DNA of 64,000 nucleotides from an uncultured bacterium (GCA_964350315.1 CAYGJD010000002.1:24157-88156), one strand, 5' to 3'. Shown: positions 35,054 through 39,861, counted from the first letter of the stretch. Notes: generated from the sequence alone by a model not told the origin. A program made the numbers and translations.

Positions 35054-35086
35054 AAAAAAACGCACCCAGAATAAATTGGATGCGTT
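35054..35086 (-). terminator. Rho-independent terminator closing the lipoxygenase-cyclophilin operon
   Basis: Minus-strand RNA forms a 9-bp stem aacgcaucc/gggugcguu followed by a U-run. The one G-U pair would be a C-A mismatch on the plus strand. Confidence 0.7.
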
Positions 35087-35111
35087 CAATTCAAATAATT
35101 TTTTAAATAAA

Positions 35112-35717
35112 TTAAGCAGATTTAGCAGTCAAAGCCTTCGCTGAGATGATTGAAACTTCTTCAACAGGACGATTTCCCGCTTGCGTCTTCACGTTTACAA
35201 TCTTATCAACGATCTCCATCCCTTCAACAACCTTTCCAAATACAGGGTGATTGCCGTCTAGGTGCTTGTTATCGACAACATTGATAAAGAACTGGCTTCC
35301 ACCTGTATTAGGCCCAGCATTAGCCATAGAAATCGTTCCACGCTTATTCTTGTTGATCGCATCAGCCTCTAGTGGAAATTCATCTTTGATTTTATAGCCA
35401 GGTCCACCGCGTCCACTTCCTTCTGGGTCTCCACCTTGAACCATGAAATTCGGAATCACTCTATGGAAAATAGTTTTATCATAAAATCCCTGTTTCACAA
35501 GCTTTAAAAAATTCTCTGTTGTGATAGGCATTAGGTTTGTGTATAGCTCGATCTTGACATCACCCATTGTCGTTTTAAGGACTACAGTTTGATTTTCTTT
35601 AGACATAATTTCTCCTGATTTTAAGGGCTGCGTACTAAAAACACCCAAGAAAAAAAGCAAGGCGCAAAAGCCTCTGATTTTCGTGGGATAAAATAGTTTC
35701 TTGAATTTTTTTGACAT
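35112..35717 (-). CDS. Cyclophilin-type peptidyl-prolyl cis-trans isomerase, secreted
   Basis: FHRVIPNFMVQGGDP and GTISMANAGPNTGGSQFFI motifs. Signal-like MSKKFKKLFYPTKIRGFCALLFFLGVFS. The start is uncertain, with alternatives at 35753 and 35783. Confidence 0.9.
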   Translation of the reverse strand: MSKKFKKLFYPTKIRGFCALLFFLGVFSTQPLKSGEIMSKENQTVVLKTTMGDVKIELYTNLMPITTENFLKLVKQGFYDKTIFHRVIPNFMVQGGDPEGSGRGGPGYKIKDEFPLEADAINKNKRGTISMANAGPNTGGSQFFINVVDNKHLDGNHPVFGKVVEGMEIVDKIVNVKTQAGNRPVEEVSIISAKALTAKSA

Positions 35718-35810
35718 AAACTGATTCAACCTCTTGTTAATCGATAGGTTCATGTGTTGTTTAACAGAGACATATTGACACATCGATCAAAAGAGGTGCA
35801 ACTTTTTTTA

Positions 35811-36884: not shown

Positions 36885-36904
36885 AATGAGCTCCTAAATC
36901 TCAA

Positions 36905-37879
36905 TCAAACAACCTGTTTAAAAACAATTTCTGTAAATTTCTTACAAATATCTTCTATTTTGACCTTCACTTGCGGGGAGAGATCTCCCGTAACTCCAGT
37001 TTGAATATTTTGCCGGCATATATTCGTAACACTTTCTCTACCCATCAATAGAAGAAATTGCTTTATTAAGACTCTTTGTAATTCTGGGGTTTGATGTGTC
37101 GGAATTTTGCTGACTAAACCTCTTAATCCAGCAGGATCTATTTTTTCTATTTCGCTATCAATACAACTTTTTGCTGCTGTAAGTGGCTTATAAGCAGAAT
37201 TGACGTTTAGCATGTTCGCAGAAGGCATTGTCATAATGCTCATTGAAAATTCAAGTAATTTCATTCCCAATAGTCCAGTAAGGACTCGATTTAGAATCTC
37301 AGATAGTTCTTTTCTGTCTGCTGCTAATTGTGCATCTAAGACGCCTTCAGCAGAAGCTTCTTCCTGCTGTGTAGCCCCAACTTCGTTTTTAATAAGTTCT
37401 GCTCTAAAGTTAAAATCATTTGATGTGACTCTAAGTGTATATACTCCCTCTTGATCTATATCTTTTGGAAGCTTTATTTCCACTCTTCTATCACTTCGTC
37501 TTACCGTTTCTCCTCTTGTTACGGTTCCATCAGGGTGAAGAACTGAAGGTCCATAAGAGGGTCCTCGCTCAAAAACACCAAGATTTAGCACAAGAGAACG
37601 AACTCTTGCAATAGTTACGTGTAAAGAGTCTATATTGAGTGCGTTAGAAGCACGGTAAGGGGTAATACAAATTTTTGCAGGCGTTTCGGGATGAAATCGA
37701 TCTGGCAAATGAACGTTATAACGTTTCTCGGAAGTCTGACTATTTGTTGGATTAAAAATTAAATCAGCAACTTTAATCTCAAGCCCACCGTGAGATATAC
37801 CACCACGCCAGACCGAAGGTCCTTCCCACTCAAAATTTAAAAAAATCTTACCACTAGTTGCTGCTGATGCTTCTGCCAT
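36905..37879 (-). CDS. Orphan protein, paralog A of a tandem pair
   Basis: 324 aa. AAGGAG SD 5 nt before the ATG. 20 nt upstream of paralog B. Confidence 0.65.
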   Translation of the reverse strand: MAEASAATSGKIFLNFEWEGPSVWRGGISHGGLEIKVADLIFNPTNSQTSEKRYNVHLPDRFHPETPAKICITPYRASNALNIDSLHVTIARVRSLVLNLGVFERGPSYGPSVLHPDGTVTRGETVRRSDRRVEIKLPKDIDQEGVYTLRVTSNDFNFRAELIKNEVGATQQEEASAEGVLDAQLAADRKELSEILNRVLTGLLGMKLLEFSMSIMTMPSANMLNVNSAYKPLTAAKSCIDSEIEKIDPAGLRGLVSKIPTHQTPELQRVLIKQFLLLMGRESVTNICRQNIQTGVTGDLSPQVKVKIEDICKKFTEIVFKQVV

Positions 37880-37947
37880 GCCGTCTCCTTACGATTAATT
37901 TTTCGTAAAGATCCTACCATCCGCTTCAATTTATTTTAAATAAAAAG

Positions 37948-39861
37948 TTAAGTTTCAATACTCCGTGGCCATTGAGAAACTTCACTATCGTCAATGTTTG
38001 TATCAATAAATTCTTTTAGAAAAAGTCTAAAATTTATTAGTGCTACATTTCTTGGATCTGAGGAATCGCCATCTTTAAAAAACAGCTCTTGTTCCACTCC
38101 TCCCAAAGGTATCGCGGATTCATACGGTGCTGAAAAACAGAAGAGCGAACCAAAACTCATCATTCCTCCAAGAGTCCCCGTATTAGGCATATATTTCATT
38201 AATTCACTTGTACTTAATTCACTTTTCGGATCAGGTAAGTCTTTTTTTTGTAAACAAGGAGGGAAATTTCCGGCATAGATCATTCCTGGATTTACTATTC
38301 GAACAAATCTACCTGCACCATGAATGGTAATTCTATAGAGATAACTTGTTAACAAATTAACCAAGGACTCTTTTGTTTCTATTTTAGAAATCCCTCTGAT
38401 ATTTCCTTCCTTTTTACTCGTAGCGTTTTCTATCCACTTTTGTATTTGCTTGTCCTCTTTAACATCCTGATCTGATGAATATGTGTTCTCTATCACCGCA
38501 GAGACATACTCTTTAGTCGCACTCCAAAATTTCAGTTGATTTCCAACAAGTTCATATTGATCCCAATCTTGATTACTAGAGAAATCACCTTTTTTAATCC
38601 CATTTTGTTCTAGTTGATTCAGTGGATCGTCGTCAAAAATTTTTCGATTTATAGAATATTTTTCAATTAAATCTAAAAACGTTTTTGCTTTTGATATTGA
38701 TGTTGGTGGAGTTGTTTCTTCCCAAAGAAGCAACAAAACCCCATCAAATCCAATCAAATATTTTGACATTGGCGCTAATAATTCATAAATCGGATGATCC
38801 TGCGAAAAACTTTTGAACATCGTCATTTGGAGTGCGCCAGTCACAATATGCAATTGATATACATGTCCAAGCCATATGCCATAAACTGTAATGGAGACCT
38901 TTGCTGCTTGTAAAGCATACAACCATGCTCCATCTGTACAACTTCCAAACTCATAACACTGGATATGTTTTCCTTCATAACCTGAGATCCATACAGAAAT
39001 CGGTGTAAGTTTCTTTGTGTTTGGATTTTGCTTAAGAAAAGTACATGTCCCTGGTGTAAAACGCGTGACACCATGAATTTGTGCTGATTCAAAATCCTCA
39101 AAAATCGTCATGTCAATTGCATAAAGCAATCCTTGTTTCGAGAGTTTTTCAAATTCAGGATTCCAAGATTGACTGTATTTTTCTTTGAATGCCAAAAGCG
39201 TTTTTCTTTCAACTTTTTGTAGCACAGATAGATTAAATGGAGCACCATACTCAGTGATTGTTGCCCAGAACTCTTCATTTGCTATATCTACATCAGTTAA
39301 AGTAGCGCTCCATCTTTTAAGATCACTTTTACTTGTTTCATAAATCTTACCATAATTTGTGAGGGTGATCGACAATTGATCGGGTGATTCTAAACTTAAA
39401 TCTTGTAGGACAATATCTTTTCTTTTAAGCCTATTGGGCACTGATTGCTCATTTACAATTCGACTCTTAAGCAACTTGAGTAATACCGGCTTATTCGTAA
39501 TAACCATTTTCATCGCTGTTTTCTCTAAGTCTCTTGCTAGCTTGTGTGTAGAATCAAAGGAAATATGGGTGCTATTGTTTCCATAAATAAACTCATATCC
39601 CGTTGTCTCTATTCCATTTATTGTGAAACGATTTGAGAGGGCATATTTAGCTTTATAGGTTGCAACAGAACGACCAGAAAGTTTATAAACAGCATCTATC
39701 GTTTCAGCAATTTGAAGTGGAATAGCCGGGATGTTTTCATACCCTAAGTCTTTGATTGGTAATACATGAATCTTCTTTATCAAAGATTGATAGAGCTGGT
39801 TTGCTAGAAAACCCAACACAGCTAGAACTACAAGCGTAGAAATCACCCACAAATAAAACAT
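37948..39861 (-). CDS. Lipoxygenase-like protein with N-terminal membrane anchor
   Basis: 637 aa. TM helix FYLWVISTLVVLAVLGFLANQLY. WLYALQAAKV...GHVYQLHIVTG (HxxxxH iron-ligand helix), TIHGAGRF at the second ligand site, and C-terminus WPRSIET versus canonical PNSISI. Confidence 0.6.
   Translation of the reverse strand: MFYLWVISTLVVLAVLGFLANQLYQSLIKKIHVLPIKDLGYENIPAIPLQIAETIDAVYKLSGRSVATYKAKYALSNRFTINGIETTGYEFIYGNNSTHISFDSTHKLARDLEKTAMKMVITNKPVLLKLLKSRIVNEQSVPNRLKRKDIVLQDLSLESPDQLSITLTNYGKIYETSKSDLKRWSATLTDVDIANEEFWATITEYGAPFNLSVLQKVERKTLLAFKEKYSQSWNPEFEKLSKQGLLYAIDMTIFEDFESAQIHGVTRFTPGTCTFLKQNPNTKKLTPISVWISGYEGKHIQCYEFGSCTDGAWLYALQAAKVSITVYGIWLGHVYQLHIVTGALQMTMFKSFSQDHPIYELLAPMSKYLIGFDGVLLLLWEETTPPTSISKAKTFLDLIEKYSINRKIFDDDPLNQLEQNGIKKGDFSSNQDWDQYELVGNQLKFWSATKEYVSAVIENTYSSDQDVKEDKQIQKWIENATSKKEGNIRGISKIETKESLVNLLTSYLYRITIHGAGRFVRIVNPGMIYAGNFPPCLQKKDLPDPKSELSTSELMKYMPNTGTLGGMMSFGSLFCFSAPYESAIPLGGVEQELFFKDGDSSDPRNVALINFRLFLKEFIDTNIDDSEVSQWPRSIET

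Follow-up and report, generated by a model that had tools for sequence, protein, structure and literature searches.

A lipoxygenase-family gene in a chlamydial genome and its relationship to a widespread bacterial clade with a variant predicted metal site

A lipoxygenase-family gene at the head of a four-gene cluster

We analyzed a 64,000-nucleotide stretch of DNA from an uncultured bacterium (GCA_964350315.1 CAYGJD010000002.1:24157-88156, hereafter the window), in which a gene on the minus strand encodes a 637-residue protein of the lipoxygenase (LOX) superfamily. Downstream of it on the same strand lie genes for two proteins of an unnamed family, herein called paralogs A and B, and for a cyclophilin (Table 1). 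We judge it probable, if by no means secure, that the LOX gene is a member, most likely acquired by horizontal transfer, of a large bacterial clade of the superfamily that is biochemically uncharacterized. Bacterial LOXs are rare and few have been studied. According to one review, the enzymes that have been characterized account for under 0.5% of the more than 4700 known sequences (PMC13319228).

All four open reading frames (ORFs) are present on the minus strand with the spacing reported in the initial annotation of this DNA. The gaps measure 68 nt between the LOX gene and the gene for A, 20 nt between the genes for A and B, and 27 or 93 nt between the gene for B and the cyclophilin gene, depending on which start codon the latter uses. 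The window is matched with 100% identity by two further assemblies (runs ERR3534981 and ERR3534985), over 33157-39102 and 36124-38205, and therefore the order of the four genes is not an assembly artefact.

The initial annotation had recognized the 637-residue ORF as a LOX, and had proposed a search with the Pfam profile PF00305 and a comparison of the predicted structure with Pseudomonas aeruginosa LoxA. It had named the lack of a profile hit, or a predicted fold other than that of LOXs, as grounds for abandoning this identification. The profile search yields a match of 42 bits (E = 6e-11) against a gathering cut-off of 23.6 bits, and the match is confined to residues 295-549, the central 255 residues of the protein. 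Among proteins of solved structure, the best sequence match is human ALOX15B (E = 2.9e-15, or 9e-23 when a profile of the clade is used), and all significant sequence or profile matches in the PDB are LOXs. Furthermore, an AlphaFold model made from 45 homologues has a pLDDT (predicted local distance difference test) of 92.5 and a predicted template modeling score (pTM) of 0.92. When this model was compared with the PDB by using Foldseek, 132 matches were obtained at E <= 0.001, and all 50 among the matches listed are LOXs, including that of P. aeruginosa. The top matches have E values of about 1e-16 and template modeling (TM) scores of 0.5-0.65. Because the profile matches and the listed fold matches are to LOXs only, neither ground for abandoning the identification was encountered. 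The protein is confidently predicted to carry the LOX catalytic fold, and we regard it as a genuine homologue of the family that was rightly recognized as such.

Table 1. Features of the LOX gene cluster in the window
Feature	Position	Strand	Basis
LOX-family gene, 637 aa, member of the bacterial clade with His3 / Arg / -Glu-Thr pattern	37948-39861	minus	PF00305, ALOX15B match, AlphaFold, Foldseek
N-terminal hydrophobic helix, aa 1-24, MFYLWVISTLVVLAVLGFLANQLY, probable membrane anchor	39790-39861	minus	translation
First predicted metal-ligand cluster, H333-V-Y-Q-L-H338 (H-x4-H)	38848-38865	minus	translation; aligned to ALOX15B H373 and H378
Second predicted cluster, H514-G-A-G-R518, third His ligand followed by Arg	38308-38322	minus	translation
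C-terminal P-R-S-I-E-T, terminal carboxylate the presumed fifth ligand	37951-37968 (37948-37968 with stop)	minus	translation
Paralog A, 324 aa, unnamed family	36905-37879	minus	family profile, AlphaFold
Paralog B, 357 aa, same unnamed family as A	35811-36884	minus	BLASTP against A; family hidden Markov model, E 7.6e-52
93-nt gap between B and cyclophilin genes, long imperfect hairpin pairing the cyclophilin AAGAGG Shine-Dalgarno sequence	35718-35810	minus	folding
Cyclophilin-type peptidyl-prolyl isomerase, N-terminal signal-like segment, 201 aa	35112-35717 (alternative upstream ATG 35783)	minus	PF00160
Intrinsic-terminator-like hairpin and U-run, 3' of cyclophilin gene	35058-35087	minus	11-bp stem, 5 G-C pairs

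Relatives of the LOX protein in many bacterial phyla

In a protein search in which 8000 candidates were scored, 629 clusters had E values of 0.001 or less. Their proteins typically comprise 600-690 aa and share about 40% identity with the window protein. An exact-match contig look-up for the LOX protein itself yielded no record. The best 120 clusters cover 80-100% of the query with 38-49% identity and have lengths of 575-781 aa. Named proteins of the clade are called 'lipoxygenase family protein' at their source. These include proteins from Aquimarina sp. 2201CG5-10, Dokdonia pacifica, and metagenome-assembled genomes (MAGs) of Saprospiraceae and Solirubrobacterales, which resemble the window protein in length, in full-length identity (36-49%), in the predicted His triad and Arg518, in a terminus that reads -N/S-I-E-T, and, in a subset, in the N-terminal helix.

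Relatives are present in 190 species genomes of GTDB (one genome per species) from Actinomycetota, Bacteroidota, Acidobacteriota, Chloroflexota, Planctomycetota, and other phyla. The best 80 of these genome matches come from Solirubrobacterales, Saprospiraceae, and Flavobacteriales (Dokdonia, Aquimarina, Flavivirga, and Fluviicola), as well as from Acidobacteriota, Chloroflexota, Planctomycetota, one Verrucomicrobiota MAG, a few Pseudomonadota MAGs, and one Nitrosopumilus MAG. No chlamydiae are found among these best 80 of 190, and the window genome itself is not among the matches. In the literature covered, which did not extend to a 2022 review that reportedly sorts bacterial LOXs into nine clusters, we found no paper that characterizes any member of the clade or describes its pattern of ligands.

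The Nitrosopumilus protein belongs to the same clade (L075 8001-9695; OZ244033.1, chromosome 1) and is 40% identical to the window protein over residues 19-637. This MAG is a chromosome-level assembly in which the LOX gene is flanked by gatB, a gene for an UpsA-like pilin, and a divergent AhpC gene located 458 nt upstream. The GC content of the region is uniformly low (0.31-0.39).

Chlamydial host and nearest relatives

The initial annotation had taken the host to be a chlamydia-like organism, and comparison of GyrB bears this out. The window carries gyrB-gyrA, typA, pheS, infC, zwf, a long-form ispG, and a gene for a pyrophosphate-dependent phosphofructokinase. Its GyrB protein is 87% identical to a metagenomic protein and shares 70-73% identity with proteins named Chlamydiia, Simkaniaceae, Simkania negevensis, and Candidatus Algichlamydia. 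On this basis, we assign the host genome to Chlamydiota, as an environmental chlamydia.

The closest relatives of the LOX protein point elsewhere. They are 45-49% identical to it, with none exceeding 49%, and they are encoded on contigs that carry a Bacteroidota-type Por_Secre_tail gene. These relatives also share the N-terminal helix and the h-R-L-P-L junction that follows it. A chlamydial host whose LOX has Bacteroidota-like nearest relatives makes horizontal acquisition likely. The initial annotation knew of no LOX described in chlamydia-like organisms, and likewise our literature search found no paper on a chlamydial LOX. As far as we have found, therefore, the presence of a LOX in a chlamydia is new, and this is the first LOX-family gene reported in the chlamydial phylum. 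It may illustrate how an environmental lineage, itself dependent on lipids from the host, has gained a gene.

A predicted membrane anchor and a probable cytoplasmic catalytic domain

The AlphaFold model places a helix at residues 2-29 with pLDDT values above 90, and the first 240 residues as a whole are modeled as this membrane helix plus mostly helical elements. No Pfam match to a PLAT domain was found in the protein, and thus it does not have the architecture of eukaryotic LOXs. Translation, Pfam, and the model therefore all agree with the earlier description of a single N-terminal helix and no PLAT domain. Among 45 aligned clade members, 15 have a hydrophobic N-terminal helix, five have twin-arginine translocation (Tat)-like RR motifs, and 25 have neither. 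The window protein and those most closely related to it are among the 15 with a helix.

The distribution of charge suggests how the helix is oriented. The window protein has a net charge of +2 after the helix versus 0 before it, and in 14 of the 15 helix-bearing members the helix is followed by more positive charge than precedes it. Because positive charge follows the helix, the positive-inside rule predicts an N-out/C-in topology. The catalytic domain would then lie on the cytoplasmic side, held to the inner membrane by the helix.

Such a topology speaks against a secreted enzyme that attacks host membranes in the manner of LoxA. LoxA of P. aeruginosa is secreted to the periplasm, whereas the window protein appears to be anchored with its enzymatic domain in the cytoplasm. 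The corresponding alternative is that the helix is an uncleaved signal anchor and that the protein acts in the periplasm or at the surface as a virulence-type LOX, oxidizing host phospholipids that contain polyunsaturated fatty acids as LoxA does. Chlamydiota are intracellular bacteria in contact with host lipids, and the assignment of the window to this phylum by GyrB would suit such a role. In addition, the P. aeruginosa enzyme is among the structural matches, and the Tat-like signals of some clade members indicate that the fold can work outside the cytoplasm. However, the hydrophobic segment is not preceded by a positively charged n-region, the charge follows it in nearly all helix-bearing homologues, and more than half of the aligned members (25 of 45) lack any export signal. 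We therefore consider export unlikely.

Invariant and divergent residues at the predicted metal site

The conservation of residues was scored in 111 non-redundant clade members, of which 109 complete sequences were used for the terminus. H333 and H338 of the first cluster and H514 of the second are each His in all 111. The two residues of the first cluster align directly with ALOX15B, whereas H514 would correspond to ALOX15B H553 by way of a HMMER alignment that is shifted there by one residue with a compensating gap. Position 518, four residues after the third His (His+4), is Arg in 109 of 111 members. At the C-terminus, E636 is Glu in 109/109 sequences and T637 is Thr in 101/109, and none of the 111 members runs beyond the position of T637. 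The P-R-S-I-E-T end has Thr in place of the canonical terminal Ile/Val, with a spacing that we take to equal that of the canonical P-N-S-I-S-I. Thus, across the aligned sequences, the predicted metal triad (His-x4-His plus His) is invariant and the position of the C-terminus does not vary. Together with these features, Arg518 and the -Glu636-Thr637 end are signatures of the clade. The roles of R518, E636, and T637 are a matter of conjecture.

The initial annotation had read most of this site correctly. The motifs HVYQLH, HGAGR, and PRSIET translate where it had placed them, and both the Arg at the position of the fourth ligand and the terminal Thr are present. However, the W-x2-A-K motif that it had reported ahead of HVYQLH does not exist as such. 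Its counterpart is W313-L-Y-A-L317, and the Lys that was claimed lies four residues further on. Moreover, the Arg, the Thr, and the helix in place of a PLAT domain had been presented as atypical, but they are not peculiar to this gene and recur in hundreds of bacterial proteins of the clade. These features, including the lack of PLAT, are best read as inherited traits of a widespread group.

Comparison with known enzymes illustrates the extent of the divergence. Human ALOX15B (15-lipoxygenase-2; PDB 4NRE and 7LAF) aligns with the window protein in the H-x4-H helix and the third His, and it likewise lacks Asn or His at His+4 (H-A-A-V-S). However, ALOX15B has a PLAT domain, W-L-L-A-K, and a C-terminal Ile. 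In the window protein, a membrane helix stands in place of PLAT, the motif reads W-L-Y-A-L, the residue at His+4 is Arg, and the chain ends in -Glu-Thr. Structural identity between the two is only about 15%. The best whole-length superpositions are with bacterial enzymes of similar size, namely the LOX of Enhygromyxa salina (PDB 8X8F) and LoxA (PDB 4G32 and 5IR4), with TM scores of 0.57-0.65 over 660-700 columns. We take both to lack the PLAT beta-barrel and to end in Ile. Their sequences are only 14-15% identical to the window protein. The canonical second cluster is His+Asn (PMC6612559), in contrast to the His+Arg and -Glu-Thr of the window clade. This His+Asn pair has been called 'essential for true ALOX sequences' (PMC6612559). 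Because the window protein has neither Asn nor His at this position, nor the Ser of ALOX15B, but Arg518, we rate the clade as a variant rather than a plain member of the family.

It is conceivable that the clade has lost the canonical iron chemistry altogether and retains the LOX fold as a lipid-binding protein or as an otherwise different metalloprotein. Such a loss would account for the Arg at the fourth-ligand position and for Leu in place of the canonical Lys (position 317) in 110 of 111 members. It would also be in keeping with a PF00305 match limited to the central 255 residues and with the fact that we found no characterized clade member in the literature. However, three invariant His residues and a fixed terminus, maintained across many phyla, are what would be expected of a retained metal site. 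Furthermore, the residue at His+4 varies among LOXs of solved structure, as in ALOX15B and in the N694G mutant of soybean LOX-1 (1y4k). A clade without dioxygenase activity thus seems quite unlikely to us.

The downstream genes and the proposal of dedicated partners

Paralogs A and B are real but distant relatives of each other, as the initial annotation had supposed. They are 21% identical by BLASTP (E = 3e-11), and both match the family profile. The strong Shine-Dalgarno (SD) sequences that had been attributed to their genes are evident as AAGGAG ahead of A and TAGGAG ahead of B. However, the two proteins are not orphans. A word-indexed search found one relative, and an exhaustive profile search revealed 153 cluster representatives of the family at E <= 0.001, including 103 with E values of 1e-10 or better. 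No match to the family was found in Pfam or NCBIfam.

The AlphaFold model of paralog A (pLDDT 91.6) has an N-terminal beta-sandwich with strands between residues 11 and 164, followed by a helical C-terminal domain (residues 167-323) that includes one very long helix. This fold has no significant match in the PDB or in BFVD, a library of viral structures, and its resemblances to domain 4 of cholesterol-dependent cytolysins and to transthyretin are weak and generic. We considered whether the sandwich might be a PLAT domain supplied in trans, and rejected this idea given that there is neither a Pfam match nor a significant fold match. Two other metagenomic members differ in layout. P0253 (488 aa) has two stretches that match the paralog profile, the better one at residues 222-376, and its sequence shows a second beta-sandwich domain nearer the N-terminus. 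P0259 (450 aa) is extended by a long additional stretch at its C-terminus. The family is therefore modular.

Elsewhere, members of the paralog family occur singly, in nine other contexts; a metagenome scan with a narrow alignment of the family returned five loci. One gene follows a V-type ATPase operon (order DUF2764-A-B-D-I-K), another follows an ABC transporter gene and precedes a DUF1207 gene, a third lies between MFS transporter genes near a gene for a DUF4116/ankyrin protein, and a fourth lies beside a Fic gene. The remaining contexts are short or undistinctive. We take this V-ATPase gene order and the DUF1207 and DUF4116/ankyrin neighbors to be typical of chlamydiae, and on that basis some of these neighborhoods look chlamydia-like.

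The third downstream gene encodes a full-length cyclophilin domain (PF00160, E = 3.3e-53, profile positions 2-158 of 159), for which the best NCBIfam match is PpiA, below the cut-off of that model. An independent Logan gene call places its start at 35717, giving a 201-aa protein that begins MSKKFKK and is preceded by the SD sequence AAGAGG. With this start, the gap after the gene for B is filled by the hairpin listed in Table 1, which has a predicted stability of -23.1 kcal/mol (z -3.63) that was not equaled in any of 200 shuffles. This hairpin might act in translation or in processing, or might weakly impede transcription. The SD sequence of paralog A likewise lies within a hairpin, although a weaker one (z -2.0). 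Beyond the cyclophilin gene, the terminator that had been proposed is evident as a hairpin of -15.6 kcal/mol (z -3.25), and again none of 200 shuffles folds as well. The region contains two terminator-like sites versus 3.8 expected from shuffles, which is not above expectation. The layout is compatible with the four genes sharing one transcript, for which no promoter was identified, and they may do so.

The initial annotation went further and proposed that the LOX has dedicated partner proteins. Comparative evidence does not bear out this claim, which had made the locus look exceptional. Among 83 loci that encode LOX homologues (1.2 Mb in total), none carries a paralog-family gene, let alone the downstream pair, or a cyclophilin gene. 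Conversely, neither a LOX nor a cyclophilin gene was found in any of the nine other contexts of the paralog family. When the full set of ORFs lying up to 5 kb from the LOX genes was clustered, no neighbor was present in more than 9 of 85 loci, and those that recur derive from closely related genomes, such as several Dokdonia loci, and look like local shared gene order. Because the genes do not co-occur elsewhere, the idea of dedicated partners is unsupported. The adjacency seen in the window is lineage-specific by this comparison, there is no evidence of a dedicated functional module, and the three downstream genes look like chance neighbors.

The contigs of the closest LOX homologue, P0002, carry genes for a LysR regulator, an AhpC/TSA peroxiredoxin, an AhpD-like CMD protein, and a redoxin (L001 2361-5429, and L002). 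These genes are 2.5-5.6 kb upstream of the LOX gene and at first suggested the handling of lipid hydroperoxides, but the association does not extend to the clade in general. Peroxiredoxin was also considered as a conserved LOX neighbor, and was rejected because it is present in only 2 of about 82 contexts.

A dedicated four-gene operon, in which the paralogs serve as accessory subunits (e.g., by contributing a PLAT-like, membrane-binding sandwich in trans) and the cyclophilin as a folding helper, nevertheless has several observations in its favor. The genes are on one strand with short gaps and consensus SD sequences for A and B, the only strong terminator is 3' of the last gene, the paralogs have an N-terminal beta-sandwich, and the arrangement was recovered in independent assemblies. 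Set against these are the complete lack of co-occurrence at the 83 LOX loci, a LOX clade that has no conserved neighbor, and a paralog family whose members stand alone and without a LOX in nine other contexts. Moreover, the paralogs have no Pfam match to PLAT and no LOX or PLAT protein among their listed fold matches, and the interval separating B from the cyclophilin folds into a stable hairpin. Thus, we regard such an operon as very unlikely.

A proposed activity and the evidence that weighs against it

We favor the explanation that the window gene encodes a variant LOX of the widespread clade, and we propose how such an enzyme would work. A single Fe or Mn ion would be bound by the three His residues and the carboxylate of Thr637. 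Arg518 would stand in place of the weak Asn/His/Ser ligand of other LOXs, and Arg518 and Glu636 would form a clade-specific second shell, perhaps as a pair. Polyunsaturated acyl chains would be oxygenated by the usual hydrogen-abstraction mechanism. If the charge distribution is a reliable guide, the N-terminal helix would tether the enzyme to the inner membrane, and its catalytic domain would face the cytoplasm. In that case it would probably act on fatty acids, or on lipids containing polyunsaturated fatty acids, obtained by the chlamydia from the eukaryotic host, rather than on host membranes attacked from outside. The gene precedes two tandem genes of an unrelated family, which occurs in chlamydia-like contexts, and a gene for a periplasmic-type cyclophilin, perhaps on a shared transcript.

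Several observations weigh against this explanation. With regard to the enzyme, the C-terminal 143 aa alone have no detectable LOX match among PDB sequences, the protein lacks the published His+Asn pair of true ALOX sequences (PMC6612559), and Leu317 occupies the canonical place of Lys throughout nearly all of the clade. With regard to the locus, the short gaps, strong SD sequences, and lack of an internal terminator fit an operon. With regard to its origin, the tree in which the window protein groups with the relatives on Bacteroidota-like contigs and with Aureispira is a neighbor-joining tree without support values and is star-like. Moreover, the codon usage of the LOX gene is ordinary, and its GC content of 0.354 is only about 1.9 standard deviations below the window mean of 0.384 (standard deviation 0.016).

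A recent transfer that is visible in composition was rejected on these last two grounds, the codon usage being ordinary and the GC content only slightly low. Because the composition is ordinary, any transfer must be old or must have come from a donor of similar composition. We have moderate confidence that the gene was acquired horizontally, long ago, from a Bacteroidota-like donor.

A more adventurous proposal, to which we give little credence, is that the clade is a functionally distinct branch of the LOX fold with another metal, redox tuning, or reaction, in which Arg518 and Glu636 reshape the first or second coordination sphere, and that in the chlamydia it acts on polyunsaturated lipids obtained from the host, on the cytoplasmic side of the inner membrane, co-expressed with paralogs A and B recruited as lineage-specific helpers. 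Regardless, the gene points to a large group that spans phyla and has a conserved, non-canonical predicted metal site, which offers enzymologists a concrete target.

Additional genes in the region

The LOX cluster is flanked on one side by genes for a TspO/MBR protein (33808-34293, plus strand) and an Rce1-like CAAX protease (34310-34969, minus strand). On the other side are genes for a polysaccharide deacetylase (39960-40841, plus strand) and for a protein with a neutral/alkaline ceramidase N-terminal domain (40849-42120, minus strand; PF04734, 38.6 bits versus a cut-off of 32.1). These flanking genes (33808-34969 and 39960-42120) are further accessory genes related to the envelope or to lipids. 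Two further ORFs in the window were noted. A 1028-aa ORF (46443-49529, plus strand) has no Pfam or NCBIfam match. A 153-aa ORF (32691-33152, minus strand), which has no Pfam match, carries the tandem direct repeat (N/D)LEDFPIIIDD twice.

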